Below, piece after piece: positions 26,220 to 62,878 of a stretch of DNA of 64,000 bases. This DNA comes from Vicinamibacteria bacterium (GTDB lineage Bacteria; Acidobacteriota; Vicinamibacteria; Marinacidobacterales; Marinacidobacteraceae). Position 1 is the first letter of the stretch. Every line of letters begins with the position of its first letter. The notes beneath the pieces were generated by a model. It did not search any database and was not told the DNA's origin. It saw nothing but the letters and a program-made list of their open reading frames with translations. Both the position numbers and the translations under genes were made by a program. The DNA lies in the NCBI GenBank assembly GCA_963555995.3, contig OY821641.1, positions 1,728,001-1,792,000 of the forward strand, written 5' to 3'.

Positions 26220-26764
26220 CAGCCTGTGGTGAAACCCCCGTGAGCGCCGAGAGCGGCGAGGCGCCCGGCTGACAAGGCGCGTGAGGGAGGAATACCGGGT
26301 GTATTCCGACCGAAACGCAACGCAGAGCGCCTCGCAGAGGCGCGGTTCAGGCGGGATGCATCGCCGCTCGAACGCCGCGTGGGTTTTGCCACAGGCTGTT
26401 AACAGTCTGTGGTGAAACCCACGTGAGCGCCGAGACGGGCGAGGCGCCCGGCTGACAAGGCGCGTGAGGGAGGAATACCGGGTGTATTCCGACCGAAACG
26501 CAACGATGAGCGCCTCGTAGAGGCGCGGTTCAGCCGGGATGCATCGCCCGTCGAACGCCGCGTGGGTTTTGCCACAGGCTGTTAACAGTCTGTGGTGAAA
26601 CCCACGTGAGCGCCGAGACGGGCGAGGCGCCCGGCTGACAAGGCGCGTGAGGGAGGAATACCGGGTGTATTCCGACCGAAACGCAACGATGAGCGCCTCG
26701 TAGAGGCGCGGTTCAGCCGGGATGCATCGCCCGTCGAACGCCGCGTGGGTTTTGCCACAGGCTG
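26220..26764 (+). mobile_element. Tandem triple of the 179-bp MITE-like structured element (family A)
   Basis: Units 26220-26398, 26403-26581 and 26586-26764 separated by TTAA; terminal IRs CAG(C/T)CTGTGG...CCACAGGCTG; units 2 and 3 appear identical. Confidence 0.85.
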
Positions 26765-26777
26765 TTAAATTCCCGCG

Positions 26778-27548
26778 ATGGCAAACGCGCCTCGTTCTCC
26801 CTTCTGGCCCGGCGTCCTCTCGCCGTTCGTTTCGGCGTTCCTGGGCGCGGCCACGTATCTCATCCTCACCCGGCTGAGTTCGAACCCGGACGCGGACTAC
26901 CTGTTTCGCCTGGGGGCCGTGGCGTTCGTCATGCTGCTGCCCCCTGCGTTCGCGCTGTACCGCGCCTTTCGGGGCTACCGGGACGGCGGCCTCCAATGGA
27001 CCGGATGGATGGCCGCAGCGGTGGCCCTCCTCTCCCTCGGCCTCGTCGCCGTTCCCATCGGCGGCGCCGTGCGGCGAGCCCGCCAGGCGGCCAACCTGGC
27101 GCTTTCCGGGGTGGCCGCGCCCGACTTCGTCGCCCGGGACCTCGACGGCAGGGTCCACCGCCTCTCGGATCACCGTGGATCCGTGGTCCTCGTCAACATC
27201 TGGGCCACCTGGTGCCCGCCTTGCCGCGCCGAGATGCCCGAGCTGGACCGGCTGGCGCGGGAACGCGGCGAGGAAGGCTTCCGCGTCTACGGCATCTCCA
27301 CCGAGGAGGAGGCCATCCAGCAGGACTTCCGCAGGGACGTCCTGTCGGTGGACTACCCGCTGCTCCTGCCCGGCGCGCTCGAGAGCGGCGTCATGCCGGA
27401 CATCTTCGTGGAGACCGCCCGCTACCCAGCCAATTTCCTCATCGACCGCGACGGGCTCCTGCATCCGGCCCCGAGCACCGACCAGCCCTTCGCGGCGCTC
27501 GAAGCCGAAGTGGACCGGGTCCTGGCGTTGCCCGCAGGAACGCCCTGA
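26778..27548 (+). CDS. TlpA/ResA-family thiol-disulfide oxidoreductase with N-terminal TM helices
   Basis: APDF, NIWATWCPPCRAEMP and YPANFLIDRDG. Confidence 0.9.
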   Translation: MANAPRSPFWPGVLSPFVSAFLGAATYLILTRLSSNPDADYLFRLGAVAFVMLLPPAFALYRAFRGYRDGGLQWTGWMAAAVALLSLGLVAVPIGGAVRRARQAANLALSGVAAPDFVARDLDGRVHRLSDHRGSVVLVNIWATWCPPCRAEMPELDRLARERGEEGFRVYGISTEEEAIQQDFRRDVLSVDYPLLLPGALESGVMPDIFVETARYPANFLIDRDGLLHPAPSTDQPFAALEAEVDRVLALPAGTP

Positions 27549-27559
27549 ACGGGCCGGCT

Positions 27560-27717
27560 TGGAACGCCGGCTTCAGCCGGCACCCGCGGCGCGAAGCGCA
27601 GCGGACTGCACGACGCTGCCCCGCGCGATGGCGTTCGGCTCTCGGTCCATCACGGCGAACCGCGGCACAACATCCGCGGGCCTTCGGCCCGCTGTGCCGG
27701 CTGAAGCCGGCGTTCCA
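27560..27717. repeat. REP-like inverted doublet (family B), copy 4, reverse orientation
   Basis: TGGAACGCCGGCTTCAGCCGGCAC ... GTGCCGGCTGAAGCCGGCGTTCCA between convergent genes. Confidence 0.85.
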
Positions 27718-27726
27718 AGCCGTCGG

Positions 27727-29121
27727 TTAGCGGTCGGCGCCGAAGTTGCCGAGCGCCATGATGGACGGCACCGCAACTCCGTTCAGCGTGGCGGGGGTGT
27801 AGCGGCCGCGGACCAGCGACATCATCATCTGGTGGACGCGCCCCGAACTCTCGGGCGCGAAGTGCGCGGACTTGACCCGGCCCCGGTGGTCAATGAGGAC
27901 CATGATCCCGTCCCGCTCCGAGGAACGCCGCGAACCGCCCGAATCCCGCATGGGCACCGGCGTGCTCCGGAGCACCGGGGGCTCGTAGAGGATGCCGGGG
28001 TTGCTGGCGCGCTCCCGCACCGCCATCAGGAACGGGGCGAGATCGTGCATGAGGTAGTCGAAGTCCGTTTCGAACGCGATCTCGAACGCCGCTTCGGCGC
28101 CGACGCCGTCGGAGCGCAGGGCATGGAGATAACCGAGCTGCAGGTGGGCTTCCGCGTCCCGGGGCCGAATGTCGAGCAGCGCCCGGTACAGGCTCTCGGT
28201 GTCCTCGAGATCGCCGTTCAGCGAATGGGAACGGGCGAGCAACCGGAGCGCCCGGAGGTTTGTCGGGTCCTGGAGGAGTACCTCCCCGAGTTCCTCGATG
28301 GCGAGATCGAGGTTGCGGGACCCCAGGTGGGACTCGCCGATCAACAGGCGAACATCGTTGCGCTGCGCGTCCGAGACCGGCATGAAGGTCGACAGCCAGT
28401 TGATCGCCTGCTCGAACTTCCCGTCCTCGATGTAGCGGCGCGCCTGCCGGATCGGATCCTCCATCCCGACGATCATCTCCAACGGGGGTTCCGGGACGGT
28501 CGGGCGGAGCATGAAGTGCCGCTGCGGGACCACCGCCCGCTCGCTCAGGCTGGCCGCCAGCAGCGGATACGAAGTGGCCAGCCGCTCCATGGCGACGTCG
28601 AAGTCATCCAGCACGCGGAGTTTCTGGCCCTCGTAGACCATCCCCTGCCGCTCGGCGCCGGCCCGGATGGTACCGATGTAGACCGGACGGTCCGCGGGGA
28701 CGGAAATCAGGGTCTCTCCCCGTTCGTGATCGCGGGGGGACACGGTGAAACGTTGCCGGATGGGCCGGAACCGCCGGGTGTTCAGCGGGCGGATGTTCGG
28801 GAAATAGACGGCCTCGATCGCCTCCACGTCATAGACGCCGGGGGGCACCAGCTCGTTGATCAGGCCGAGCCCGTCGTCCACCGACAGGGTTTCGTTGCGG
28901 CCGGTATCACGATGCCGCAGGACGATCCGGCGCGAACGGAAGTCGGGGCTCTCGAATTTGCCCACGAACCGGCCGATCACCAGCGACTTGCCGTCGCGCT
29001 GCACTTCGGGCCAGACCGAGTTCCGGGAGGGCAGCTCCGCCTCGGCGGCGGGCAGGAATGGCCCGGTCCCGTTCAGCCCGAGGACCAGCAGGCCCGTGAA
29101 GAAACCGCGGAGCACCTTCAC
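27727..29121 (-). CDS. Exported TPR-repeat protein with a TonB-C-like C-terminus
   Basis: Signal peptide, TPR-like helices (DPTNLRALRLLA, PRDAEAHLQLGY) and C-terminal YTPATLNGVAVP; start uncertain. Confidence 0.65.
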   Translation of the reverse strand: MKVLRGFFTGLLVLGLNGTGPFLPAAEAELPSRNSVWPEVQRDGKSLVIGRFVGKFESPDFRSRRIVLRHRDTGRNETLSVDDGLGLINELVPPGVYDVEAIEAVYFPNIRPLNTRRFRPIRQRFTVSPRDHERGETLISVPADRPVYIGTIRAGAERQGMVYEGQKLRVLDDFDVAMERLATSYPLLAASLSERAVVPQRHFMLRPTVPEPPLEMIVGMEDPIRQARRYIEDGKFEQAINWLSTFMPVSDAQRNDVRLLIGESHLGSRNLDLAIEELGEVLLQDPTNLRALRLLARSHSLNGDLEDTESLYRALLDIRPRDAEAHLQLGYLHALRSDGVGAEAAFEIAFETDFDYLMHDLAPFLMAVRERASNPGILYEPPVLRSTPVPMRDSGGSRRSSERDGIMVLIDHRGRVKSAHFAPESSGRVHQMMMSLVRGRYTPATLNGVAVPSIMALGNFGADR

Positions 29122-29203
29122 GATGGTCTCACCCTTTCCTTTGCCGTTCAACCCGGCCCCCCGGCAGGCCCCTGCACACCGCTCGGCCGGCTGCGCCGCG
29201 CGG

Positions 29204-30496
29204 CTAGCGAGCCCCGCTCCGGCGGGTCAGGACCCGCGCCGCCGCCCGCGCCCGGTCCGCAACTTCGCTGTCTTCGTCCTCGCCGACCTCCTGGAGCCCG
29301 GGAATCGCGTCCGGGTCGCCGAGGCGTTCCAGCAGCGCGATGAGCTCGAGCCGGATCTCCCGGTCCGGGTCGCCCAGATAGCGCAGGAACTCGTCAAGGT
29401 GATCGGACGCGAGCTCCAATCCGTACTGCCGGGCGGTCTCGCGCAGGCGGCGGTCGGAGAGCGAAAGCACCACCCGGTCCACGAAGGGCGCCTGCCCGAG
29501 CCGCACCAGCGCGAAGCAGAACGCGAGCTGCACCCGGGAGTCCTCCTCGCGAAGGAAATCCCGGATCAGGCCGTCCACGAGCGTCGGGTCGTCCAGCCGG
29601 CCCAGTCCCTCGGCGGCGTACTCGCGGCGGCGCGCGTCGCGGCTCGAGAGTTCGTGGTAGAACGTCCCCCGGGCCTCGGCGGCCCCGATCCTGGCGAGCC
29701 CTTCGAGGGCGTCCCGCGCGAGATCGTTCCCCGGGTCGCGGTCGTAGATCGCCAGCAACGCCGGCGTCGCGGCGGGGAAGGCCATCCGCCCCAGCGCCCG
29801 GACGACGTGCCGCTGAAGGTCCGCGTCCTCCACCATCGCGAGCAGGCTCTCCCCGGCCGCTTCGGTCCCGATCGCGCCCAGGGACTCCACCGCGTTCCGC
29901 CGCACTTCGCCGTCCGTGTCGCCGGCGGCGCTGCGTGCGAGCGGGGCCGCCGCCGCGGTCGCGCGCAGCGCCCCGAGCGCCTCGGCGGCGAGCCTCCGAT
30001 TCTCGGTTTCCTCGTCATCGAGCCGGGCGGCGAGGGCATCCACGATCGCGGGTTCCACGGGCCGCAGCGGATCGAGCGCGAATTCCTGTTCCCGCCGCAG
30101 CAACCAGTCCACCGCGCGCTCCGTTCGGCCCGCGGGAGGTTCCCGGCGGTGGATGTCCACGAGTCCCCCGATGGCGCCGCGGCGATGCGCGGGAACTTCA
30201 TCCTCGAGCAGGACGATCAGGCCCGCCGCGGCATCGGGCCGGCGGACCGCCGCCAGCGCCTCCAGCACCGCACGCCGCACGTCGCGGTCGGCATCGCGCG
30301 CCGCGGGGAGAAGCGCCGCCACCGCCTCGGCCGAGCCGTCTTCTCCGAGCGCGCGCGCCGCGTCGCGGCGGGTCCGGACATCGCGGCTCTCCAGCCGGGC
30401 GGCCAACTCCTCGACATTCGACTGCGCCGGCGCGAGCGTCGCGGCGCCGGCGAGGAGAGCGAGAGCGACCCCGATTGCGGCGGGGCGCTCCCGCAT
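29204..30496 (-). CDS. Exported HEAT/PBS-lyase repeat protein
   Basis: Signal peptide and repeated D..VRR.A..ALG units. Confidence 0.85.
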   Translation of the reverse strand: MRERPAAIGVALALLAGAATLAPAQSNVEELAARLESRDVRTRRDAARALGEDGSAEAVAALLPAARDADRDVRRAVLEALAAVRRPDAAAGLIVLLEDEVPAHRRGAIGGLVDIHRREPPAGRTERAVDWLLRREQEFALDPLRPVEPAIVDALAARLDDEETENRRLAAEALGALRATAAAAPLARSAAGDTDGEVRRNAVESLGAIGTEAAGESLLAMVEDADLQRHVVRALGRMAFPAATPALLAIYDRDPGNDLARDALEGLARIGAAEARGTFYHELSSRDARRREYAAEGLGRLDDPTLVDGLIRDFLREEDSRVQLAFCFALVRLGQAPFVDRVVLSLSDRRLRETARQYGLELASDHLDEFLRYLGDPDREIRLELIALLERLGDPDAIPGLQEVGEDEDSEVADRARAAARVLTRRSGAR

Positions 30497-32172
30497 CAGC
30501 GGTCCTCCCCGCCGGTGGTCCCGGCCAGGTACGCCTCGGGATCGCGGAGCAGCAGCGCCGCCCGCGGCATCGCCTGGAGCGCCGCGGTGATCTGCGGGTC
30601 GCGGTCCATGGTCGTCTCCCGGGAGGCTCCCGGTCCCCAGAGGAGGCTGAAGACCTCGCCTTCGATGCGGAGCGCCACCGCGTCGCGATGCCGCTCCAGT
30701 CCCTCCCGGTCGTGCGGGATCCGCTCCTCCGACAGGAAATCGAAGAACTCCGCGAGCGTCGCATCGTCCACGCGGAAACTCTGATCCACCGCCCGGATCA
30801 GGTCACCGCGCGCCTGGAGCTCGTCCGGGCGGGTGCCCGCCCCGTCCACCGCCCCGCGGCCGTCCGCCGGGACGAACCGGGTGGCGAAGCGGAAGAAGGC
30901 CCCGTGCGCTTCGACATCCACCAGGACGCCGGGGAACTCCGGCGCGGCGATCTCGATGTCGGGCGCCACCCCTCCCCCGCCCCGGATCTCCCGCCCCAGC
31001 CCGGTCAGCACGACCGTCCCGGCCTCGTCGTTCGATTCGCGTTCTCCCCGATCCTGGAAGTACGCGAGGAAGTCTCCCGAGTCGTAGTCCCGCTGGAGCC
31101 GGCGGCCGCTCGGCGTGAAGTACTCCGCGGAAGTGAGGCCCAGCGCGTAACCGTGCTTCAACTGAAAGACCGACTGGACGAGTCCCTTGCCGTAGGTGTT
31201 CTCCCCGAGGATCAGCCCGCGGTCGTGATCCTGGATGGCGCCCGCGACGATCTCGGATGCGGAGGCGCTCTCCCGGGAGACGAGCACGATCACGGGGAGA
31301 TCGCTGTAGGGACTGGGCTCTTCGGCATGGAAGACCTGGTCGTTTTCGGAGTGGCGTCCGCGGATCGAAACGATTTCCTGGTGCTGCTTCAGGAACACGT
31401 TGGAAACGGCCACCGCCTGGTTCAGGAGTCCGCCCGGGTTGTGGCGAAGGTCCACCAGCAGGCGGTCCGCCCCGGCGAGGCGGAGTTCCCGGATGGCGTC
31501 GCGCAGCTCGCCGTCGGTGTTCTCGTTGAAGTCCGAGACCCGCACGTAGCCGGTCTTCTCGGACCCGGCGGGCTCGTCGAGCACGAAGTAGTAGGGAACG
31601 CTCTTGAGCGGGATCCGGTCCCGGATCACCGTGAAGTCCAGCGGGGCGTCGTAGCCGGGCCGGGTGATGGTGATGCTGACCGGCGTTCCTCTCGGACCCC
31701 GGAGCAGGTTCACCGCGTCGTCCATCGTGTACTGCGTCGCGTCCTCGCCCTCGATCCGGGAAATCACGTCACCCGCCCGAATCCCGAGCCGGTACGCCGG
31801 GGTCCCCTCGAACGGCGAGACCACGGTCAGGAGGCCGTTCTGGTGCTGCACCCGGATCCCGAGCCCGACGTAGCCTCCCTGCTGCCGCTCCCGCATCTGG
31901 CGGTAGTTGCGGGGAACGAAGAGGTTCGAATGGGGGTCGAGCCGGGCGAGCATCCCGGACACCGTCGCCCGCGTCAGGGTCTCCGGGTTGATTTCGCGGG
32001 GGTACGCCGTCTCGATGTGCCGGATGACGTTGGAGTGCCGCTGCAGCAACCGCCTCAGGTCGTCCGAGGGCGGGAGTCCGCGCGCCGGCTGGACGCCGAG
32101 GACCGTGACCGAGATCGCCGCCCCCACGAGGAGCGGCATCAACAGGGGGATGACCCGCGCCCGGAGCCTCAT
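30496..32172 (-). CDS. ctpA: C-terminal processing peptidase (S41A)
   Basis: LDPHS, PDZ domain (GLGI), DLRHNPGG, SASASE and TYGKG. Confidence 0.92.
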   Translation of the reverse strand: MRLRARVIPLLMPLLVGAAISVTVLGVQPARGLPPSDDLRRLLQRHSNVIRHIETAYPREINPETLTRATVSGMLARLDPHSNLFVPRNYRQMRERQQGGYVGLGIRVQHQNGLLTVVSPFEGTPAYRLGIRAGDVISRIEGEDATQYTMDDAVNLLRGPRGTPVSITITRPGYDAPLDFTVIRDRIPLKSVPYYFVLDEPAGSEKTGYVRVSDFNENTDGELRDAIRELRLAGADRLLVDLRHNPGGLLNQAVAVSNVFLKQHQEIVSIRGRHSENDQVFHAEEPSPYSDLPVIVLVSRESASASEIVAGAIQDHDRGLILGENTYGKGLVQSVFQLKHGYALGLTSAEYFTPSGRRLQRDYDSGDFLAYFQDRGERESNDEAGTVVLTGLGREIRGGGGVAPDIEIAAPEFPGVLVDVEAHGAFFRFATRFVPADGRGAVDGAGTRPDELQARGDLIRAVDQSFRVDDATLAEFFDFLSEERIPHDREGLERHRDAVALRIEGEVFSLLWGPGASRETTMDRDPQITAALQAMPRAALLLRDPEAYLAGTTGGEDR

Positions 32173-32185
32173 GGCGTGATCCTAG

Positions 32186-32245
32186 CAGCCTGTGGGGAAA
32201 CCCACGTGAGCGCCGAGACGGGCGAGGCGCCCCGGCTCAGCCGGG
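32186..32245 (+). mobile_element. Truncated family A element (left end)
   Basis: CTAG|CAGCCTGTGGGGAAACCCACGTGAGCGCCGAGACGGGCGAGGCG... with the centre collapsed to CCCGGCTCAGCCGGG. Confidence 0.75.
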
Positions 32246-32298
32246 CCGCTTCGCGGATCAGGCCGGGTGCGCCGTGGGAGCGATTGGCGTTGCGACCT

Positions 32299-32345
32299 GC
32301 GCGGCGCGGAGCGCCGCGCGTGCCGGTCTGGAGACCGGCGTTCCA
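32299..32345. repeat. Solo family B REP-like arm
   Basis: GCGCGGCGCGGAGCGCCGCGC hairpin followed by GTGCCGGTCTGGAGACCGGCGTTCCA. Confidence 0.75.
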
Positions 32346-32360
32346 GGCCGGATGCGCGGC

Positions 32361-33143
32361 CTAGTCGTCCTTCGGCTTCTTGCCGCGCATCCGGTTCCCC
32401 ACCCAGGCGATCCCGATGGAGAGGGTGTAGAGCAGGATCATGGGCCCGGCCAGCAGGATCTGGGTGGCCGGATCGGGTGGGGTCAGGAGGGCGGCGAAAA
32501 CGAAGCAGAGCAGGATCGCGTACTTGAAGTAGCGGACGAGGAAACCGGGAGTGATCATCCCGAGCCGCGACAGCAGCAGCGCCAGCGTGGGGATCTGGAA
32601 CATCACCGCGGTCACCAGCACCAACCGGGCGTAGAAGCTGAAGGTCTCCGAGACCCGGTAGCGGATCTCGATGTCCTCCCCGACGCCGCCGAAGGTGCTC
32701 AGGAACTCGGCGCCGATGGGGAAGAGCACGTAGTGGCAGAACGCCGCCCCCGAAATGAAGAAGACGGAGCCCACGATGACGAACGGGACGGCGAGGTGGC
32801 GCTCGTGGCGGTAGAGCCCGGGGGCGATGAACCCCCACGCCTGACCCAGCCAGACCGGCGTGGAGATGACGACCGCCACCAGGAAGCTCATCTTGATCCC
32901 GAGCACGAAGTTCTCCTGCGGCGCGGTGGCGATGAGACTCCCGCCGTACGGCTCGATCACGTTCCGGAGCGGCTGCATCAGGAAGTTGAAGACCTCGTCG
33001 TAGAAGAAGAAGCAACCCACGAACGCCACCATGACCGCGATCGCCGCCCGGATGAGACGGCTGCGCAACTCGTCCAGGTGTTCGAGGAAGGTCATCCGGT
33101 CGGCCGGCCCGTTCGGGCCGTCCGTCCGTTCAGCGTCGCTCAC
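32361..33143 (-). CDS. tatC: Twin-arginine translocase subunit TatC
   Basis: MTFLEHLDELRSRL, FIAPGLY, FQIP and LTPPD. Confidence 0.95.
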   Translation of the reverse strand: MSDAERTDGPNGPADRMTFLEHLDELRSRLIRAAIAVMVAFVGCFFFYDEVFNFLMQPLRNVIEPYGGSLIATAPQENFVLGIKMSFLVAVVISTPVWLGQAWGFIAPGLYRHERHLAVPFVIVGSVFFISGAAFCHYVLFPIGAEFLSTFGGVGEDIEIRYRVSETFSFYARLVLVTAVMFQIPTLALLLSRLGMITPGFLVRYFKYAILLCFVFAALLTPPDPATQILLAGPMILLYTLSIGIAWVGNRMRGKKPKDD

Positions 33144-33174
33144 GGATCGCCGTGGGGCAGCGGGAACCGCCCCG

Positions 33175-33654
33175 TCACTTGCCGGGATCCCCTCGGGATT
33201 CCGATTCCGCGGACCCGTCGTCGCCCGCCCCGCCGTTCCCGCCCGCGGGTTCCCCGGCGACCGCCGGCTCGGTTCCGGGAGCCGCGGTGGCGTCCGCCGC
33301 TTCGTCCGGGCCCGACGCCGCCGGAGGCGAGTCCGCCGCGGACTCCGTTGCCGGCGGGTCCTCCTTCGCGCGCGGCCCCGCGGCCGACGGACCGGACCCG
33401 CCCGCCGGATCGAGCCCCCGGCCCAGATCCGTCACGTCCTTCTTCAGCTCGGAAACCTCGCTCCGCGCCGCCCGGAACTCCTCCATCTGGACCTCGCGTT
33501 CCAGGGTGCTGCGGAGTTCGGTGCTGGTCCGCCGGAACTCGGCGAGGCTCTTGCCGAGCGTCTTGCCGATCTGGGGCAGCTTGCGGGGGCCGAACACGAT
33601 CAGGGCCACCACCAGGATGATCAGCATCTCCTGCATGCCGAGCGGACCGATCAT
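33175..33654 (-). CDS. tatB: Twin-arginine translocase TatA/TatB family subunit
   Basis: GMQEMLIILVVALIVFGPRKLP, amphipathic helix and long acidic tail, adjacent to tatC. Start and TatA-versus-TatB assignment uncertain. Confidence 0.75.
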   Translation of the reverse strand: MIGPLGMQEMLIILVVALIVFGPRKLPQIGKTLGKSLAEFRRTSTELRSTLEREVQMEEFRAARSEVSELKKDVTDLGRGLDPAGGSGPSAAGPRAKEDPPATESAADSPPAASGPDEAADATAAPGTEPAVAGEPAGGNGGAGDDGSAESESRGDPGK

Positions 33655-33771
33655 CAGCGGGAGCAGGGAGAGGGCGGGCAAGAGTCCGCACATTATGGTC
33701 TGCCCGGGCGGCGCCCGCGCCCCCGCCACCGCGCCTGCGGGCTCCTTTCCGAACGCCCGTTAGACTGAATC

Positions 33772-35899: not shown

Positions 35900-35903
35900 G
35901 AGT

Positions 35904-39041: not shown

Positions 39042-39076
39042 GGACCTTCTCCTCTCGGGAATCGCTTCCGTACCGC

Positions 39077-42338: not shown

Positions 42339-42346
42339 CCGCCCGT

Positions 42347-43149: not shown

Positions 43150-43327
43150 CAGCCTGTGGTGGAACTGACGTGAGCACCGAGACGTCCGCTGGGCCTCGCT
43201 GACAAGGCGTGCGAGGGAGGAATACCGAGTGTATTTCGACCGAAGCGCAACGACGAGCGAGCCGAAGGCGAGCGTTCAGCGGGGATTCAGCGGGCGTCGA
43301 ATGCCGCGTGAGTTTCAGCACCGGCTG
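43150..43327 (+). mobile_element. Family A element, divergent subtype
   Basis: CAGCCTGTGGTGGAAC...GAGGGAGGAATACCGAGTGTATTTCGACCGAA...CACCGGCTG, 178 bp. Confidence 0.8.
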
Positions 43328-44825: not shown

Positions 44826-45094
44826 CCGCCGTTGGTGGAACTGGCGTGAGCACCGAGACGCCCGCTGGGTCTCGCTGACAAGGCGCGCGAGGGAGGAATA
44901 CCGGGTGTATTCCGACCGAAACGCAACGCAGAGCGCCTCGTAGAGGCGCGGTTCAGGCGGGATGCATCGGCGTTCGCGTCGTGAGCGGGGCGTGAGCCCC
45001 GCGCAGACCCCGGAGCGAGAGGGATAGGGGACGGGTTCACCCGGCTCCTATCCCTCTTGGCTCGGGAATGCCGCGTGACTTTGTCCACAGGCTG
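44826..45094 (+). mobile_element. Family A element with ~90-bp internal insertion
   Basis: Conserved core GAGGGAGGAATACCGGGTGTATTCCGACCGAAACGCAACG, right end TTGTCCACAGGCTG, extra hairpins at about 44970-45065. Confidence 0.8.
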
Positions 45095-48148: not shown

Positions 48149-48149
48149 C

Positions 48150-54606: not shown

Positions 54607-54612
54607 CCGCCT

Positions 54613-56922
54613 GTGGAAGACGTCACGCCCCGGCAAGGGATCCTCACCCGGACCACCCCCGCCGACCGGGGCCTCGTCAGGCTTCCGGCGCTGACGCCGC
54701 ATCTGGATTTCCGCGACATTGGCGAAGGGCGGACCCTGCTGGTCTCCGAATCGTTCAACACCCTGTTGCACGGTGAGCTGTTTGCCGCTCTCCTGCCGCT
54801 GCTCGACGGCCGCCGTTCGTGCGAGGAGATCGTCGCGGCCGTGGAGGGGACCCATGCCGCGGTGGATGTCCTCACCGCGCTGGCTTCGCTGTCCGCCAGG
54901 GGTTACGTCGTCTCGGGCGACCATGCGCTGGACCGGCGCCGGGCGGCCTACTGGTCGTCGCTCGGCGCGTCGCCGCGCTGGGTCGAGGCGCGGCTGGCGG
55001 AGTCGCGCCTCGCGGTCGAAGGCGACGACGGCCGGTTCACCCGGCGCCTCGAGGAGAACGGCGCCGCGCTCGGGCCCGGGGATCCCGACCTCACCGTGGT
55101 GGTCTGCGACGACTACCTCGAACCGCGCCTCGCCGAGGTGAATCGGCGCCGGCTCGAGGCGGGAGCGCCGTGGGCCGTGGTGCGGCCGCGCGGCATGGAG
55201 GCGCTGTTCGGGCCCGTCTTCCGGGCGGATCGTCGAGGGCCCTGCTGGGATTGTCTCGCCCATCGTCTCGGCGCTCATCGGGAAGTCCACCGTTTTCTCC
55301 GGAGCGTCGCGGGCGAGAAAGCCGCCTTCAGGCCCTTCGCCGCCCAGCCCGCCGTTCTCGAAGCGCTCTACGGGCTGATCGCGGCGGAGATCGTCAAGTG
55401 GATCGTGCTGCGCGACGCGGCGCCGATCCACGACCACGCGCTCACCGTGAACGTCGGCGCCTTCGGAACTTCGCGACACCCGGTGCGCCGCCGGCCGCAG
55501 TGCCGGGCCTGTGGTGATCCGGCGCTCCATCGCCCGGACCGGCCGCCGGTTCCGCTCGCTCTGCAACCGAGCCCCAAGACGCATCGCACGAGCGGCGGCG
55601 CGCGCTCCGTGGCGCCGGAAGTCACCCTGGCGAAGTACGGCCACCTCGTGAGCCCGATCAGCGGGGTGGTGACCTGGTTGCGGCGCACCACGGACGCGAG
55701 CGATTCCTGGCTGCACGTCCACTGGGCCGGCAGCAACCCGGCCATCACGAGCCGGAGCCTGAGTTCGCTCCGGCGCAGCCTGCGCAGCAAGAGCGCCGGC
55801 AAGGGCAGCACCGCGGAGCAATCCCGGGTGAGCGCGCTGTGCGAAGCCATCGAGCGCACTTCGGGCGCCCATGCCGGTGACGAGATCCGTACCCGCGGGC
55901 GGTTCACCGAGTTCGCCGGAGAAGACGAAGCGATCCATCCCAACGACGTGCAACTGTTCAGCGACCACCAGCTCGACAACGCGGCGGACATCAACGCGAA
56001 GGGCCATCCTTACAACATCGTGCCGCCGCTGTTCGACCCCGACGCCCGCATCGCCTGGACCCCGGTGTGGTCGCTGACGCAGCAGCGGCACCGCTTTCTG
56101 CCGACGTCCATGCTCTATTCCATGCCGGCCGAAGCGCGCGGGCCGCAAGACCTGATCGCCGATTCGAACGGCTGCGCCGCGGGCAACACGGTGGAAGAAG
56201 CGATCCTGCAGGGCTTTTTCGAACTGGTCGAGCGCGATGCGTTCGCCATCTGGTGGTACAACCGGCTGCGCGTACCGGCGGTTGACCTGTCCAGCTTCGA
56301 CGACGACTACCTCGCCTCGGCCCCGGACTACTACGCCCGTCGCGAGAGGGAGGTGTGGGTGCTCGACGTCACCTCGGATCTCGGCGTTCCCGCGTTCGTC
56401 GCGCTCTCGCGCCGGCCGTCCGCCCCCACCGAGGACATCATCTACGGCGCCGGCGCCCACGACGACCCGCGCATCGCGGCGCTGCGGGCGATCTGCGAAC
56501 TGAACCAGTGCCTCACCTGGCTGCCGGACCCCGGGAAGCGCGACGGCCGGCCCACGATTGATGACCCGCTGGCGCTTCGGTGGTGGAAGACCGGGCGGCT
56601 CGCGGACTGTCCCTGGTTGGCGCCGGCCGCCAGCCAGCCGCCCTCGACGGCCTCCCGGTATGCGGCGGTCCCGTCAACGGATACCCGCGAGGACGTGGAG
56701 CGGTGCCGCGCGCTCGTCGAAGCCAGGGGCATGGAGTTCCTGGTGCTGGACCAGACCCGGCCCGACATCGGAATGCCGGTGGTGCGGGTCATCGTGCCGG
56801 GGATGCGCCATTTCTGGGCGAGGTTCGCTCCCGGGCGCCTCTACGACGTGCCGGTCAGCATGGGCCGCCGGGAACATCCGCTTGCCGAAGCGGATCTGAA
56901 CTCCGTCCCGGTGATCGCGTGA
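54613..56922 (+). CDS. Fused RRE/E1-YcaO azoline-forming cyclodehydratase
   Basis: N-terminal winged-helix RRE, CWDC/CRAC, SAGKG, EAIER, SNGCAAG, ELVERD and ELNQ ATP/Mg-binding motifs. Confidence 0.93.
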   Translation: MEDVTPRQGILTRTTPADRGLVRLPALTPHLDFRDIGEGRTLLVSESFNTLLHGELFAALLPLLDGRRSCEEIVAAVEGTHAAVDVLTALASLSARGYVVSGDHALDRRRAAYWSSLGASPRWVEARLAESRLAVEGDDGRFTRRLEENGAALGPGDPDLTVVVCDDYLEPRLAEVNRRRLEAGAPWAVVRPRGMEALFGPVFRADRRGPCWDCLAHRLGAHREVHRFLRSVAGEKAAFRPFAAQPAVLEALYGLIAAEIVKWIVLRDAAPIHDHALTVNVGAFGTSRHPVRRRPQCRACGDPALHRPDRPPVPLALQPSPKTHRTSGGARSVAPEVTLAKYGHLVSPISGVVTWLRRTTDASDSWLHVHWAGSNPAITSRSLSSLRRSLRSKSAGKGSTAEQSRVSALCEAIERTSGAHAGDEIRTRGRFTEFAGEDEAIHPNDVQLFSDHQLDNAADINAKGHPYNIVPPLFDPDARIAWTPVWSLTQQRHRFLPTSMLYSMPAEARGPQDLIADSNGCAAGNTVEEAILQGFFELVERDAFAIWWYNRLRVPAVDLSSFDDDYLASAPDYYARREREVWVLDVTSDLGVPAFVALSRRPSAPTEDIIYGAGAHDDPRIAALRAICELNQCLTWLPDPGKRDGRPTIDDPLALRWWKTGRLADCPWLAPAASQPPSTASRYAAVPSTDTREDVERCRALVEARGMEFLVLDQTRPDIGMPVVRVIVPGMRHFWARFAPGRLYDVPVSMGRREHPLAEADLNSVPVIA

Positions 56923-56931
56923 GGAGGCGAC

Positions 56932-58044
56932 ATGCAACTTGACGCGGCGGTCGCGCTGACGGAGAACCGCCTTGCGGAGGAGGGCGGCGTCCTGAGTGAC
57001 CTGCTCCGGCACTTCCGAGACCGGGTCTCACCGGTTCTCATCGGCGATCCGGAGTGGGAACTCGTCCTCGAGCGCGCCGGAAGACTTCCGATCACGATGG
57101 GCGCGCTTCCCTTCGGCTTCGAACTGCCGCTGCACGCGCAGGCGCCAAGGGCGGACCTGGGGGTCTCGCTGGCGAGCGGGACCAGAACGGCGGCGTTCTT
57201 CCTGGAACGCGCCCGGGACCCGAAGGACGCGACCGCGAGAGCGATTGGCCGGCTGTTCCGCCGGATGGATGCCGAGGACTCGCCGCTACGCGAGATCGTC
57301 GGCCGCAAGCTGATGCTGGAGTACGACATCGGCCCCGGACGGGGCGACGACGACTCGCTTCCCGGCATGTTCCTGCGGCCCGGGGAACGCCCGATCCTCG
57401 GCGCCCGCGGTCAGGTGAACGATGTCCGGCTGGTGGTGGACGCGCTCGCCTCCTGCGTCGGTTGGGAACTGACCGGCGCCGAGCGGCGAAACGTCGAGCG
57501 GGTGTACCTGGCGCAGCCCGAAGACACCCGCATGGATTCGTTCGGGGTGTTTCCCTCCCGCTCGCGGACGATCCGCCTCGCGGTGATGGGGTTCCAGTCA
57601 CCGGCGGCGTTCGCTTCCTGGCTCGAAGCGATCGGGTGGCCGGGTCGGCTGTCGGCCGCCAATTCCGTGATCGAACGCTTCCGGGAACGCGCGCACGTCG
57701 TCCGAACCGGGGCGAACCTCGACGTGCGGGATGCGGGTGTCGGCCCGACCCTCGGCCTGACGCTCATCGTCAAGCAGCGGTACACGAAAGGTTCCCGGTA
57801 CTGGCTCGACGGCCTCACCGACTGGGAACCGTTCCTGGAGGCCCTTGGCCATGAAGAACTCGTGTTTTCGGACAAGCTGGCCGCGCTCGCCGGCTGGGTT
57901 TCGAAGCCGACGACCCTCTTCGCGAAGTCCGGGCGCTATGTCCTGCTACGCGGAATCCATCACATCAAACTGGTCGTCTCCGAGAACCAGCTTCGCCAGG
58001 CCAAAGCCTACGTGTTCCTGGTGCTTTCCGGCGGAATCCCCTAG
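56932..58044 (+). CDS. Hypothetical RiPP tailoring protein, possible PT-barrel prenyltransferase
   Basis: GAGGAGG RBS; last gene of the operon; FGFELPL, LMLEYD, IRLAV and HHIKL...KAY. The CDS is solid, the function speculative. Confidence 0.6.
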   Translation: MQLDAAVALTENRLAEEGGVLSDLLRHFRDRVSPVLIGDPEWELVLERAGRLPITMGALPFGFELPLHAQAPRADLGVSLASGTRTAAFFLERARDPKDATARAIGRLFRRMDAEDSPLREIVGRKLMLEYDIGPGRGDDDSLPGMFLRPGERPILGARGQVNDVRLVVDALASCVGWELTGAERRNVERVYLAQPEDTRMDSFGVFPSRSRTIRLAVMGFQSPAAFASWLEAIGWPGRLSAANSVIERFRERAHVVRTGANLDVRDAGVGPTLGLTLIVKQRYTKGSRYWLDGLTDWEPFLEALGHEELVFSDKLAALAGWVSKPTTLFAKSGRYVLLRGIHHIKLVVSENQLRQAKAYVFLVLSGGIP

Positions 58045-58137
58045 AAACGGTGCGAGCCTCGGAGCGCCGTCAGCGCGGGTTTGCTGTGAAAATGCAGTCC
58101 CGGCGAAACGTCAGCCAGCGCAATGGGGCCACCGGCC

Positions 58138-58331
58138 TGGAACGCCGGCTTCAGCCGGCACCCGCTGCGCGACAGCACAGCGCACGGCGCGACGTTGACC
58201 TGCGGGGTGGTTCTTTTTCTGCGCCGACCTGAACGGACCGGACGTTCCGGTAATAGCGTTCCGTACGGCCGAACCGCTACGCATCGCGCGCGGGCCTCCG
58301 GCCGGCGGTGCCGGCTGAAGCCGGCGTTCCA
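58138..58331. repeat. REP-like inverted doublet (family B), copy 6
   Basis: TGGAACGCCGGCTTCAGCCGGCAC ... GTGCCGGCTGAAGCCGGCGTTCCA between convergent RiPP genes. Confidence 0.85.
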
Positions 58332-58450
58332 AGCCGGGCACGCCAAGTGACCGAACGGCCTCACGCTCTCTGCGAGCCGTGGCCCGGATGCCAGCGCGAG
58401 GCTGGCGCTCCTACCCGGTGAGGAAGCCGGCTAGCTGCCGGTTGTCGAAC

Positions 58451-58702
58451 CTACCAGCAGCAGCAAAGGCCGGCCGAGATCGCTTCGAGCTGCTCCTCGG
58501 TGATGTTCGGGTCCGGCGGTAGCGCGAGATGCACCGTCTGCATGTCGCTCTCGTGGACCTGGATGCTCATCGAATCCGGAATCGTGATGCCGAGTTCCGC
58601 GCTGATCGCGCCCTTCGGATCTGCCAGAAGCTGACGCCGGAAATCCGCGTCGAGGGCGGACTTGTCGACAATCTGCTGCAACATTTCGTCGCCGTTTCTC
58701 AT
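58451..58702 (-). CDS. NHLP/proteusin RiPP precursor (SrpE-like): 78-aa leader + LCCCW core
   Basis: AAGGAGGA RBS; DADFRRQLLADP...ELG...VHE...HLALPP leader; EQLEAISAG| double-Gly-type cleavage site. Confidence 0.93.
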   Translation of the reverse strand: MRNGDEMLQQIVDKSALDADFRRQLLADPKGAISAELGITIPDSMSIQVHESDMQTVHLALPPDPNITEEQLEAISAGLCCCW

Positions 58703-58743
58703 GGTGTGTCCTCCTTGATGTCAGGCGCGGGCCAACCGCGCCA

Positions 58744-58771
58744 CGTATAACAGGATTGAATAGTAACACAA
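58744..58771 (-). promoter_or_regulatory. Candidate sigma70-type promoter for the precursor gene
   Basis: AT-rich patch; minus strand reads TTGTGT-N16-TATACG with an extended TG motif, about 40 nt upstream of the start codon. Confidence 0.35.
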
Positions 58772-59014
58772 CGCTGTGGGAACGTCTGGTGAACCGCAAC
58801 CGCGGGCCTTCGCTTCCCGTGCCCGGGCCGGCGGTGAGGGACCGTCCGGCCTCCCGCCGCGCCCGAGCCCGCCTCCGGCAAACGACCGCCCGGCGCCGCC
58901 TCCGTGACCCGAAGGGCGATGGTGCTAGTGTGGTGCCCCGGAAATGGCGCACGCAGCACATCCGGGCATCCCGCGCGAGGGTCCACTGGCCGAACCCCGG
59001 GGAAGGCGTCGAGG

Positions 59015-60289
59015 GTGATCCAACCGGGCAGCAACTCGCTGCGGAAGATCGCGGTCATCGGGCGAGGAACCGCAGGGTCGCTCGCGGCCGCCGCGGTGAC
59101 CCGTCTTCACCCTGACGGCGACCACGAGCTGCACCACATCCATGACTCGCGCATTCCGGTCATCGGAGTGGGTGAAGGCAGTTGGCCGAGCCTGGTCGGG
59201 CACCTGCAGCAACTGACGGCCCTGCCCCACGAAACGGTCCAGCAGCGCCTGCAGGGAACGCGCAAGTACGGCGTGGCCTTTGAGGGGTGGGGACGGCGCA
59301 ATCGGGACTTCACCCACTACTTCACGCCGCAACAGGTCTCCTACGCCTACCACCTGTCCGCCGACCTGCTGGCGGAGCTGCTGCACGAGAGCACGCGCGC
59401 GCGCCACGTCAACGCGAAAGTGCTCGGGATCACCCGGGTGGACGGCGGCGCCGAGGTCGAATTCGAGGATCGGGCCCCGGAGCGCTACGACCTGGTCTTC
59501 GATGCCCGCGGGTTTCCCCGTGACCTGGACCCCGACCGGCACATCCCAATTTCCTTCATCCCGACGGACACCGCCGTCATCCGCCGCTGTCCGGCGATCG
59601 TCGGGGACGGGCGGGACGGCCCGGTCCTCCAGCACACCTATACCCGCGCGGTGGCGCGCCCGCACGGCTGGATCTTCGTCATCCCGCTCGTGGCGCACAC
59701 GTCCTACGGGTACATCTTCAACCGCGACGTATCCGGCCTCGCCGAAGTCGAAGCGGACTTCGACGCGTTCCTCGAAGCCGATGGCGCGCCGGAGTTCGAG
59801 CAGCGCGCCGTCATCCCGTTTCCCAATTTCGTCCACCGGCAGATCTACGACGGCGCGGTGGCCCGCATCGGAAACCGGGCGGCCTTCATGGAACCGCTCG
59901 AAGCCACCGCGATCGTGTCCGCCCAGTTCCAGATCGGGATGGTCCTGCAGACCCGCCTGAACCGTCCGGTCGAGCATCTCGAGCGCGACGCGCCGGTGAT
60001 CAACCGGTTTCTCGTGAACGAGATGCTCGCCTACGGCCTGTTCGTCGGCTGGCACTACTCCTGCGGCTCCCGCTACGACAGCGGCTTCTGGCGCTACGCT
60101 CGCGACCAGGCCTGGCCGAGGCACCGCCAGACGGCGGACCCCGAGGCGGTGGGTTGCGCCGCGCTCCGCAAGTTCGACGCAATGATCGAGTTGCTGAACC
60201 GGCCCGTCATCGCCAGGGCCGACTGGGATCGGATGTGCGCGGTCCCTCTCACCAGCTACGCCCAGATGTCCCAGGGTCTGGGCTGCTGA
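59015..60289 (+). CDS. Flavin-dependent peptidyl-tryptophan halogenase (SrpI-like)
   Basis: GRGTAG, IGVGEG, GTRKYG (catalytic Lys), GWIFVIP (WxWxIP variant) and FMEPLEATAI. Confidence 0.9.
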   Translation: MIQPGSNSLRKIAVIGRGTAGSLAAAAVTRLHPDGDHELHHIHDSRIPVIGVGEGSWPSLVGHLQQLTALPHETVQQRLQGTRKYGVAFEGWGRRNRDFTHYFTPQQVSYAYHLSADLLAELLHESTRARHVNAKVLGITRVDGGAEVEFEDRAPERYDLVFDARGFPRDLDPDRHIPISFIPTDTAVIRRCPAIVGDGRDGPVLQHTYTRAVARPHGWIFVIPLVAHTSYGYIFNRDVSGLAEVEADFDAFLEADGAPEFEQRAVIPFPNFVHRQIYDGAVARIGNRAAFMEPLEATAIVSAQFQIGMVLQTRLNRPVEHLERDAPVINRFLVNEMLAYGLFVGWHYSCGSRYDSGFWRYARDQAWPRHRQTADPEAVGCAALRKFDAMIELLNRPVIARADWDRMCAVPLTSYAQMSQGLGC

Positions 60290-60404
60290 TCCTGGTCGCC
60301 GACGGCGGGCCGGGACGGCCGCCGGCCCGGCGCGGGTGCGCGGGGCGCGGCTCTGGTAGACTCACGTCCCGCATGGCGGGCATCCGGGACCGGGCGGCGA
60401 CAGC

Positions 60405-62069
60405 TTGAGCCTCCCCTCTCTCCCCGCCAAGACGCGCTTTCTCTTCGTCACCGGCGGAGTGATCTCTTCGCTCGGGAAGGGCATCGCGTCCGCCTCCATC
60501 GGGCGCCTGCTGAAATCGCAGGGATACTCGGTCACCTTCCTCAAGTTCGACCCGTATCTGAACGTGGACCCGGGCACCATGAGCCCGTACCAGCACGGCG
60601 AGGTCTTCGTGACGCACGACGGCGCCGAGACGGATCTCGACGTGGGGCACTACGAGCGCTTCACCGGCAACGCGTTCTCCGCGCTCTCGAACGTCACCAG
60701 CGGCCAGATCTACGAGACCGTGATCGAGCGGGAACGGCAGGGGGGATACCTGGGAGCGACGGTCCAAGTGATTCCCCACGTGACCGACGAGATCAAGCGC
60801 CGCCTGATCGCGGTGGCCGGCGATGCCGACGTGGTCATCGTCGAGATCGGCGGAACGGTCGGTGACATCGAGGGCCAGCCCTTCCTCGAGGCGGCGCGGC
60901 AGTTCCGGCTGGACGTGGGACCGGCGCGCGTCTGTTTCCTGCACCTGACGCTCGTCCCGATGATCGCCACCGCCGGCGAGTACAAGACCAAACCCACGCA
61001 GCACAGCGTCCGGGAGCTGCGCGCGATCGGAATCCAGCCCGACGTGCTGCTGTGCCGCGCCAAGGAGGGCCTCCCCGCCGAGGTCAAGGCCAAGATCGGA
61101 CTCCACACCTCGGTGGCTTCGGGCGCCGTCTTCACCGCGGTGGACGCGCGGTCCGTGTACGAGGTCCCCCTCAACCTGGCGGCCGAGGGCGTGGACCGCA
61201 GGATCCTCGAGCACTTCCAGCTTCCGTCCCGGGAACGGCAGCTCTCGGACTGGAAGGACCTGGTCCAGCGCCTGAGGGCCGGTTCCCGGGACGTCCGGAT
61301 CGGGGTGGTCGGCAAGTATGTCGAACTCGAGGACTCCTACAAGAGCCTCAGCGAGGCCCTCGTGCATGGCGGAGTCCCCCACGACGCGCGCGTCGAGATC
61401 CGCTGGGTGGAAGCCGAGAGCCTCCAGGACGGTGACCTCTCCCAGCTCGACGACTGCGACGGCATCCTGGTGCCCGGCGGATTCGGCTCGCGGGGGACCG
61501 AAGGGATGGCGCAGGCCGCCGGACGGGCGCGCACCGATCGCGTGCCGTTCCTCGGGATCTGCTACGGATTCCAGTGGGCGGTGGTGGAGTTCGCGCGCTC
61601 CGAGTGCGGACTCGTCGGGGCGAGCACCCAGGAACTCAACCCGGATGCGGAACACCAGGTCTTCCAGTTGCTGCGCAACCTCGAAGGCGTCGAACCGCTG
61701 GGTGGGACCATGCGGGTGGGGGCGGTGACCTGCATTCTCCGGGAGGGTTCGCTCGCCGCGCGCACCTACGGGAGGACCAGGATCAGCGAGCGCCATCGCC
61801 ACCGCTACGAGTTCGAGCGCGGCTACACCGAACTCGTGGAGTCCCGGGGCATGAAGTTCTCCGGTTTCACCGAGGACGGGTTCTACGAGATCGCCGAGAT
61901 TCCCGACCATCCCTGGTTCCTGGCCGTTCAGTTCCATCCGGAGTTCCAGTCGAACCCGCTCCGCCCGCACCCCCTCTTCAGCGACTTCATCGGAGCCGCC
62001 CTCGAAAAGCGGGAGGAGCGCGCTCGGACCGCGCTGCCGGCGTCGGCGGACGCCGTTTCCGCCGGCTGA
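60405..62069 (+). CDS. pyrG: CTP synthase
   Basis: VTGGVISSLGKG, DPYLNVDPGTMSP, KTKPTQ, GICYG, ERHRHRYE and QFHPE. Confidence 0.97.
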   Translation: MSLPSLPAKTRFLFVTGGVISSLGKGIASASIGRLLKSQGYSVTFLKFDPYLNVDPGTMSPYQHGEVFVTHDGAETDLDVGHYERFTGNAFSALSNVTSGQIYETVIERERQGGYLGATVQVIPHVTDEIKRRLIAVAGDADVVIVEIGGTVGDIEGQPFLEAARQFRLDVGPARVCFLHLTLVPMIATAGEYKTKPTQHSVRELRAIGIQPDVLLCRAKEGLPAEVKAKIGLHTSVASGAVFTAVDARSVYEVPLNLAAEGVDRRILEHFQLPSRERQLSDWKDLVQRLRAGSRDVRIGVVGKYVELEDSYKSLSEALVHGGVPHDARVEIRWVEAESLQDGDLSQLDDCDGILVPGGFGSRGTEGMAQAAGRARTDRVPFLGICYGFQWAVVEFARSECGLVGASTQELNPDAEHQVFQLLRNLEGVEPLGGTMRVGAVTCILREGSLAARTYGRTRISERHRHRYEFERGYTELVESRGMKFSGFTEDGFYEIAEIPDHPWFLAVQFHPEFQSNPLRPHPLFSDFIGAALEKREERARTALPASADAVSAG

Positions 62070-62095
62070 TCCGGCGCCCGGCCTTTCGGTACCCC

Positions 62096-62698
62096 GTGCC
62101 CAGCGAGGATTCCGGCGGTCCCGCCGCGGTCCGGCGCCAGGACCCGCAGGCCACGGAGGGTGGGCGCGATCCGGTCTCCCGGCGGGCCGCCGCCATCGAG
62201 GCCATCCTGATGGACGTGGACGGGGTCCTGACCGACGGCACCTTCGAGCCGGGCGACGAGGACGCCGGAATCCCCGAGCGGAAGCGTTTCCACTCCCGGG
62301 ACGGCCTGGGCCTCGTGATGGCGAAGAAGAGCGGCCTGCGCCTCGGTTTCGTGACCGGCCGCCGCTCCGGAACCGTGAGGGGGCGCGCCGCGGAACTGGA
62401 GCTCGACTATCTCCGCGAAGGCTGCTTCGACAAGGGTCCGGCGTTCGACGAGGCCTGCGCCTCCTTCGGCCTGCTGCCGGAGCAGGTCGCCTTCGTGGGT
62501 GACGACGTGCAGGACCTGCCGGCGCTTCGCAAGGCCGGCTTCGCCGCCGCCCCCGCCGACGCCCATCCCGCCGTCCTCGACTGCGTCCACTTCGTCGCCG
62601 ACGCTCCGGGGGGGCGGGGCGCCGTCCGTCAGGTCATCGAGCGGATCCTGGAGGCTCGCGGGCTGCTCGACGCCGCGCTGTTTCGGTTCTGGGGCTAG
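62096..62698 (+). CDS. kdsC: KDO-8-phosphate phosphatase-like HAD hydrolase
   Basis: DVDGVLTDG, FHSRDG, VTGR, GDDVQD and GGRGAVR; start uncertain. Confidence 0.85.
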   Translation: MPSEDSGGPAAVRRQDPQATEGGRDPVSRRAAAIEAILMDVDGVLTDGTFEPGDEDAGIPERKRFHSRDGLGLVMAKKSGLRLGFVTGRRSGTVRGRAAELELDYLREGCFDKGPAFDEACASFGLLPEQVAFVGDDVQDLPALRKAGFAAAPADAHPAVLDCVHFVADAPGGRGAVRQVIERILEARGLLDAALFRFWG

Positions 62699-62878
62699 CA
62701 GCCTGTGGATAAAGTGACGTGAGCGCCGAGGCGGGCGAGGCGCCCGGCTGACAAGGCGCGTGAGGGAGGAATACCGGGTGTATTTCGACCGAAACGCAAC
62801 GCAGAGCGCCGCAAAAGCGGCGCGGTTCAGCCGGGATGCATCGCCCGCCGAACGCCGCGTGACTTTGTCCACAGGCTG
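62699..62878 (+). mobile_element. Family A element with perfect CTAG duplication
   Basis: CTAG|CAGCCTGTGGATAAAGT...ACTTTGTCCACAGGCTG|CTAG, 180 bp. Confidence 0.87.

Follow-up and report, generated by a model that had tools for sequence, protein, structure and literature searches.

The window analysed here, a 64-kb stretch of DNA, contains seven copies of a short repeat (family A) at five loci, all on the + strand, as an earlier note on this DNA had counted, but only five of them are about full length (178-180 bp). Three stand in tandem, namely copy 1 (26220..26398, 179 bp), in whose left flank, GTAA, the upstream gene has its stop codon (the gene call ends at 26219), copy 2 (26403..26581, 179 bp), which serves as the reference copy and has a TTAA junction on each side, and copy 3 (26586..26764, 179 bp), which is identical in sequence to copy 2 and is followed by TTAA. 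The others are a truncated copy (32186..32245), in which the left arm is fused to the inner stem and the core and right end are missing, a divergent subfamily copy of 178 bp (43150..43327, flanks CCAG and CTCA), a variant of 269 bp whose right arm holds an additional hairpin module (44826..45094, flanks CTAA and TCAA), and a copy of 180 bp (62699..62878) between perfect CTAG repeats, at the point where its upstream gene ends in a stop codon. The TTAA/CTAG flanks described in the earlier note are present at some loci (one reads CTAG..CTAG) and absent from others (GTAA..TTAA, CCAG..CTCA and CTAA..TCAA).

In copy 2, the left terminal inverted repeat (26403..26423, + strand), whose first 15-16 nt equal the left end of an insertion sequence (IS) of the same genome (G000:C1:362858) with one mismatch, pairs with the right terminal inverted repeat (26561..26581, + strand) in the folded + strand. 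The conserved core of 53 nt (26456..26508, + strand) begins 53 nt inward of the left end and contains a CAAGGC / AACG-N-N-G internal loop, tandem GA pairs and an apical hairpin, and next to it a side hairpin with a c-GNA-g triloop (26510..26526, + strand) makes a three-way junction. The six stem pairs quoted in the earlier note were all located at the expected places, with both variants of the side hairpin in the sequence, and the core is nearly invariant as it had stated. Folding of the element, computed as DNA, gives a z score of -9.1, far outside chance. In agreement with the earlier note, which saw no transposase in the window, no DUF772, DDE_Tnp_1, IS1380-type or Y1 match was found there.

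Genome-wide, 82 near-full copies of family A were detected in G000, and 75 of the 80 copies with clear ends have a length of 179 bp, with a terminal stem of 21 bp. Perfect 4-bp direct repeats flank 37 of these 80 copies overall, including 25/32 young copies vs 1/25 old copies. Empty sites were found in relatives for both window loci tested, that is, a single CTAG in G006 for the locus at 62699 and a single GTAA in G012 and G005 for that at 26220, where the duplication is imperfect (right flank TTAA vs left GTAA). In relatives the sites either lack the element or carry one that is turned round, and positions are not conserved between species. We rejected a 2-bp TA duplication as the general rule, because identical cores have TTAA, CTAG or TTAG on both sides and because the IS flanks are perfect 4-mers (3/3 in G000 and 17/18 related IS); a TA duplication does suit some imperfect sites, that at 26220 included. 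Flank shuffling by recombination was also rejected, with zero CTAG/TTAA mixed pairs in 80 + 85 copies. Mosaic and nested copies occur. The orientation of copies relative to replication shows no bias (46/95 copies). Family A is therefore a non-autonomous miniature transposon, a type II MITE, being short and non-coding, with terminal inverted repeats (TIRs), target duplication, empty sites, termini shared with an IS and an unrelated interior.

A transposase gene with the same ends was found elsewhere in the genome: three identical, intact 1515-bp elements in G000, outside the window, have termini equal to the family A ends and are flanked by direct 4-bp repeats (TTAA, TTAG and GTAA). Together with the duplications around young copies, these flanks support the IS5-like YTAR transposition that the earlier note had named. 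The transposase (475 aa) is encoded by a single ORF in an element of ~1.5 kb with a short direct repeat, and carries DUF772 and DDE_Tnp_1 domains. The curated IS1182 profile (NCBIfam NF033551) is its best match and yet falls short of the cut-off (146 bits vs 270), so the IS is filed here as IS1182/IS5-like only; the IS5_4 profile comes second (83 vs a cut-off of 140). No relative of the transposase was found in the PDB, and an attempt to map the ends of a 594-aa DDE element yielded none. The interior of the IS lacks the family A core, which was found in 0/18 related IS. Whereas IS copies of other genomes mostly have YTAR duplications, all five IS copies fetched from the relative G018 have AATT duplications, and AATT-type flanks were observed at 6/7 MITE loci of that genome. 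An element other than a MITE, or one without a transposase partner, is not supported, given the resident IS with the same ends, the empty sites and target sites that follow the local IS. The partner transposase very probably moves family A in trans. With the query used, the transposase was not found in 4/12 genomes searched, some of which have many MITE copies.

The earlier note had claimed covariation of the stems between copies, and this holds in a tree-aware test. On a tree of 147 unique sequences, 81 double events from one Watson-Crick pair to another were counted across 31 pairs, and same-branch double changes numbered 99 against a null mean of 16 and maximum of 31, although gene conversion between copies can inflate such counts and is excluded from the null. 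Changes from Watson-Crick to G·T pairs also exceed those to A·C (158 vs 29), an excess that lies in variants common to several copies (147 vs 10) and not in private variants (12 vs 17); in G000 alone, private variants still tilt to G·T (16 vs 8, p = 0.15). Within the core, sites that stay unpaired have changed less often than the paired sites further out (median 1 vs 5 changes). The covariation and the G·T excess in shared variants support the proposed selection on a single-stranded fold, and, since the excess is confined to shared variants, it is likely that multiplication of copies filters the fold of one strand.

The core, that is, the CAAGGC / AACG-N-N-G loop plus its hairpin, is also present within MITEs with unrelated ends in two phyla, and the ends of the core-bearing MITEs of G148 and G142 resemble those of the IS1380 family. 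Across phyla the unpaired loop is kept and the neighboring stems vary. Element lengths cluster at 147, 158-159, 179 and 262 bp. Under many end types the distance from end to core is 51-54 nt, against 33-35 nt in other subclasses. BLAST searches of plasmids and E. coli with four element queries gave no match. Viral matches were mostly chance coding, and about 12/46 looked structured by eye. In the literature searched (mostly open-access), we found no description of family A or of the shared core; such elements may be listed unnamed in a MITE catalogue (PMC11602168, available in part).

We propose, with belief and doubt about evenly divided, that family A is a MITE moved by the co-resident IS and that a copy likely multiplies only if one strand of its interior folds, probably in the form of single-stranded DNA. 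The 1515-bp IS would mobilise the element in trans; during copying, the + strand would be exposed and fold to a rod that pairs both ends, and the conserved internal loop of this rod might be recognised by a host factor that many bacteria possess, and not by the transposase. By analogy with single-strand initiation signals, our guess is that such a factor would most likely be a priming or replication-restart protein. The usual substrate of DDE enzymes is double-stranded DNA, so that the single-stranded step is one that we infer.

It is also conceivable, at about half the credence given to the reading above, that MITE and transposase are the same and the selected fold is RNA, in which a + strand transcript is bound by a host protein or, as has been reported for ERIC, cut by an RNase, and thereby affects the persistence or accessibility of copies. 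G-U-type wobbles and tandem GA pairs suit RNA equally well, the module of the 269-bp variant has GNRA tetraloops, which are an RNA-type feature, and ERIC changes mRNA stability depending on its orientation (cited second-hand in the available passages of PMC2229807). Copies at all core-bearing loci tend to be antisense to their neighbouring genes (42 vs 20, p = 0.007); however, this tendency is weaker in full-length copies (33 vs 19, p = 0.07; 15 vs 10; 19 vs 9) and speaks against the presence of the folding strand in mRNA. The element was found, in small shares only, in metatranscriptome contigs, but the Logan contigs show neither strand nor level. The asymmetry is absent among private mutations, and the side loop reads c-GNA-g in 107/147 sequences. 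According to the accessible part of PMC13037366, GNA is the only triloop class making a stable DNA mini-hairpin; ViennaRNA parameters do not separate or rank the triloops. No RVT_1 match was found in G000 (93% complete). Since the triloops are of GNA type and no reverse transcriptase was found, the comparison leans toward single-stranded DNA over RNA for the fold.

A third explanation, that the interior enhances transposition as double-stranded or cruciform DNA, setting length and bending so that the ends meet, appears improbable. The clustered lengths and the 51-54 nt spacing under many end types would suit it, and internal enhancers are reportedly known in a plant MITE, but neither form predicts the one-strand bias, since pairing within a strand is unnecessary for a duplex site and both strands fold in a cruciform, and the spacing differs in other subclasses. 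Less probable again is a fold without function, in which the compensatory changes arise by palindrome-templated repair (template switching) and by gene conversion between copies, and the core descends from a single ancient MITE that exchanged its ends. Long inverted repeats do copy changes from arm to arm, and mosaic and nested copies exist; against this, the explanation predicts no G·T excess of the kind seen in shared variants, unpaired core sites are the more conserved, and the unpaired loop is retained across phyla despite stem change; it is already largely contradicted. As for the proposal of a mobile structured ncRNA or ssDNA element, selection on a single-stranded fold is supported, and a stand-alone ncRNA gene is unlikely because positions are unconserved, both orientations are present and Rfam gave no match (family A scored below gathering thresholds, with no family in gathering or E-value modes and only generic miRNA-hairpin matches far under threshold). 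Such a gene or a REP/RAYT-type element, suggested by the 6S-like size and rod shape and by a Y1 transposase in the genome, is the least credible reading, contradicted by the empty or opposite-oriented sites and the matching IS, and the only Y1 match is flanked by family B repeats with no family A end or core nearby.

Beyond these rivals, we compared family A with a repeat fetched from E. coli K-12, which we take to be ERIC from its location and sequence, the record itself carrying no such annotation. ERIC, also IRU or RU-1 of enterobacteria (passages of PMC2229807, PMC3184786, PMC2267715 and PMC10969869), is a single long stem-loop, as is family A, and 5/13 K-12 copies show what appears to be the same internal loop (N-AAGGY / AACG-N-N-N') in register with a covarying closing pair. 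The ERIC apical hairpin nearly equals that of an acidobacterial sister family with the family A end type. The features of ERIC (about 127 bp, TA flanks and a 7-bp TIR) are not found in family A, which has 179 bp, 4-bp YTAR duplications and other termini; the ERIC arm is ~12 nt longer, and its core lies 24 nt from the end. Alignment of family A with ERIC is not significant (p = 0.54), and p < 0.05 was obtained for 8/29 cores, family A being outside those 8. The ERIC-type loop was observed in register in 10/15 gammaproteobacterial genomes with a pattern lacking the 3' half, for which the chance is ~0.017 per window of the scan. With an ERIC HMM, neither the 492 kb of loci searched nor G000 yielded a core, the core CM found 1/13 ERICs with filters off and none chromosome-wide, and a loose core pattern stayed at background (136 vs 155 in the control); a joint pattern with the loop fixed at 5 nt missed E. 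coli, the ERIC loop being 4 nt. The core may thus be said to resemble the ERIC centre at the motif level only, profile searches having largely failed. It is possible, though we consider it rather doubtful, that ERIC and many bacterial MITEs share an ancient portable one-strand DNA fold, with a fixed internal loop, that recruits a host copying factor, to which IS1182-like elements, IS1380 and the mover of ERIC would supply only the ends. If true, MITE amplification by DDE enzymes would gain a single-stranded, host-assisted step, and the conservation of ERIC interiors would be explained.

Among described elements, MITEPye1 of Paracoccus yeei (IS1182-type; excerpts of PMC11578231) is like family A in being ~160 bp, non-coding and intergenic with 4-bp direct repeats; it has TIRs like those of IS1182-family IS and a predicted long stem-loop, and its termini resemble family A by eye. 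It has 1-3 copies per chromosome vs ~80 for family A, one Table S7 entry has a GGCC duplication, the CAAGGC/AACG core was not seen there by eye, and the excerpts treat neither covariation nor strand. MITEPsy1 of Pseudomonas syringae (IS5-type; PMC3189936, in part) has a CTAG or YTAA 4-nt duplication, IS-shared ends and proven transposition, but is 100 nt with ISPsy2-type termini, unlike family A. In the Bacillus cereus group, bcr1 (a passage of PMC3184786) is a ~155-bp mobile repeat with 5-bp repeats whose branched fold, taken as RNA, is kept by compensatory changes, a precedent for covariation in a MITE; the passage names no autonomous partner. Type II MITE interiors appear in the available parts of reviews as filler or incidental RNA hairpins. 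In family A the interior is probably under strand-specific selection tied to multiplication, and its core recurs under unrelated ends and in different phyla, with a likeness to ERIC at the level of the motif; should the fold have no role, the finding shrinks to a new IS1182-type MITE family. Since the MITE and its probable transposase, in three intact copies, are both resident in G000, the role of the interior is directly testable. The strand-specific DNA folds of single-strand initiation signals and DNA mini-hairpins (phage G4 origin, RSF1010 ssiA and the N4 promoter), whose GNA-type loops are read by primase or RNA polymerase (PMC13037366, in the part available), offer an analogy for family A, whose strand-specific fold and GNA loops are compatible with such a role.

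The family A element is a MITE with a partner IS in the same genome. When end pairs were searched in the source genome (G000, contig C1) with a weight matrix built on the family A termini, paired ends were mostly 179 bp apart, and 1515 bp apart in three cases (C1:362858-364372, C1:2715918-2717432, and C1:3789945-3791459). These three IS copies are identical to one another, agree with the MITE over the outermost 15-16 nt at either end, are surrounded by direct repeats (TTAA, TTAG, and GTAA), and code for one protein of 475 aa, in which DUF772 and DDE_Tnp_1 domains occur. They provide the transposase gene with the same ends that the earlier note had suggested looking for. Because the best NCBIfam match of the protein, IS1182, scores 146 bits against a cut-off of 270, we name the partner IS1182/IS5-like only. 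The core (a 53-nt conserved stretch of the MITE comprising a CAAGGC/AACG-N-N-G internal loop, tandem GA pairs, and an apical hairpin) is absent from the interior of the 1515-bp IS, and family A is thus a type II MITE. With the transposase as query, no match was obtained in 4 of 12 genomes tested. G000 also contains a 342-bp internal deletion derivative of the partner IS (type I MITE; C1:3647893-3648234), a degraded second DUF772 element adjoining one IS copy (C1:2718579), and another DDE element, present four times and having an open frame of 594 aa (C1:1699007, 2145923, 3742172, and 3792565).

All seven family A copies reported earlier at five loci are present in the window, with some details corrected. 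G000 holds 82 near-full copies, and clear ends were found in 80 copies, 75 of them exactly 179 bp long; 269-281-bp variants, nested copies, and fragments also occur. Family A has matches in each of 15 genomes of the same genus and, with G000 counted, in 32 of the 41 searched, and the proposed Rfam search gave none. At four loci (G000:C1:278029, 861651, 2494277, and 2890302) a copy has inserted into another's core, always at one and the same position, and this nested element apparently moves as a unit. Identical copies form a triple array at C1:1812857-1813401, with TTAA as outer flanks and TTAG at both junctions, which fits either insertion of a multimer or a single mutation followed by slippage. 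In related genomes, insertions of an 18-nt module occur at many places within the element (L042, L050, L055, L066, L335, and L336), often as matched pairs by which the stem is lengthened.

The 4-bp, YTAR-type duplications described as IS5-like were borne out, being perfect in 25 of 32 young copies vs. 1 of 25 old ones. Two window sites (26220 and 62699) were also compared in 15 congeners, following another suggestion of the earlier note: most species lack the element, some carry copies in the opposite orientation, and the empty alleles have a single CTAG for 62699 (G006) and a single GTAA for 26220 (G012 and G005). At 26220 the right flank of the copy is nevertheless TTAA. By our own crude gene caller, the 76 loci include 25 gene ends whose stop codon falls within the duplication. 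The bases beside the two family A ends form Watson-Crick pairs with each other in 73 of 80 copies in G000 and in 76 of 85 copies of relatives, including cases of imperfect duplication, while IS flanks are plain direct repeats. In the related genome G018, AATT is duplicated by all five IS copies fetched and AATT-type flanks occur at 6 of 7 MITE loci, whereas related IS in other genomes mostly duplicate YTAR. Of all the evidence, this agreement points most strongly to this enzyme family as the mover of the MITE, and we infer that the IS1182-like enzyme mobilises family A.

In folding, the + strand adopts a rod shape in which both ends are paired and a three-way junction is closed. In all 73 unique copies its fold is more stable than that of the - strand, with RNA and with DNA parameters. 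Counted for a DNA fold were a c-GNA-g side loop in 107 of 147 sequences (all four N represented), the lack of an RVT_1 match in G000, and the lack of preference among copies for the orientation placing the folding strand in mRNA. According to the available text of PMC13037366, GNA is the sole class among 64 triloops that forms a DNA mini-hairpin, its RNA counterpart, as tested, being much weaker. Counted for an RNA fold were GNRA loops in the module of the 269-bp variant and an orientation-dependent effect of ERIC on mRNA decay (cited within the available part of PMC2229807). G·T wobbles and GA pairs are compatible with both, and the RNA runs examined were indecisive. The claimed stem covariation stood up on a tree built from G000 copies and 85 copies taken from fetched loci (147 unique sequences of 179 nt; those with gaps were excluded), where 81 Watson-Crick-to-Watson-Crick double changes fell on 31 pairs. 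Double changes on the same branch numbered 99, whereas the null gave 16 on average and never more than 31 in 1000; conversion between copies could have inflated the observed count. Single changes on this tree went to G·T in 158 cases vs. 29 to A·C; strand-biased mutation is an unlikely cause, because unpaired sites have no C-to-T excess. When variants were divided by abundance, private ones comprised 12 G·T and 17 A·C (p = 0.46; 16 vs. 8 in G000 alone, p = 0.15) and those shared among copies 147 and 10, so the strand filter seems to operate in those lineages that multiply, in agreement with the selection on a single-stranded fold proposed earlier. A single-stranded step would expose the fold, which a host factor may read, and our best-guess candidate for the role of the fold is priming.

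The core is not specific to family A. It also occurs in a 170-bp MITE family of G000 with different ends (six copies, mostly flanked by CTAG: C1:62851, 1514166, 2037385, 2141616, 2495597, and 2757874), for which no autonomous partner was found; the window itself has solitary ends of the same kind near 5093 and 58925. The pattern CAAGGCGCG-N18-46-CGCAACG-N-N-G matched at least three times per genome in 22 of the 250 other genomes examined from the same phylum; for the phylum to which a Pseudohaliea genome belongs, the figure was 6 of 301. The reversed control gave at most two matches in any genome. Among the named GTDB matches listed for a stricter pattern (80 of at least 118), all were Acidobacteriota MAGs except the Pseudohaliea genome. 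The distance from the end to the start of the core is 51-54 nt across about ten end types and 33-35 nt in other subclasses. The second phylum contains some elements of 262-265 bp with other ends; that of Pseudohaliea has two cores, one per strand, each 52 nt away from one end. In two families that carry the core, the ends resemble IS1380-family ends. In 29 cores picked by pattern, so that their loop invariance is by construction, the stems on either side show covariation, 73.7% being paired against 58.7% after shuffling and 26-46% in slid controls. Core-like hairpins adjoin apparent tmRNA and tRNA genes, recognised by eye, in three genomes (L213, L262, and L284).

A second, REP-like repeat (family B) has 735 arm matches at 443 loci in G000, with window positions 3718, 14969, 19817, 32319, and 62945 and related repeats near 27554, 40487, and 58132; its arrays lie on both sides of the sole Y1/RAYT-type transposase match (C1:751513; L453). 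At C1:3.2-3.5 Mb, cumulative GC skew falls far more steeply than in the rest of the replichore.

MITEs of IS1182 type (PMC11578231), YTAR-targeting MITEs (PMC3189936), and compensatory change in bcr1 (PMC3184786) are already described in the accessible portions of these papers. In literature outside ISfinder and most subscription papers, we found no account of family A or of a core common to MITE end types. The comparison with ERIC used the repeat located between aceF and lpd in E. coli K-12, taken here to be an ERIC, together with 12 homologues. Family A is not classed as ERIC. Against a link with ERIC, profile searches largely failed, and only 8 of the 29 cores, that of family A not among them, aligned to ERIC at p < 0.05. 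A pattern restricted to the 5' half and apical hairpin matched in 15 of 251 genomes of the gammaproteobacterial class (control 1), 10 of which had the predicted AACG in register and paired stems; the arms there measure 9-10 or 19 nt, compared with 21 in ERIC. Like the core, ERIC has the identical loop in register in 5 of the 13 K-12 copies, closed by C-G, A-T, G·T, or G-C pairs, and on these sequence comparisons it is somewhat more likely than not that the core and ERIC have a functional motif in common.
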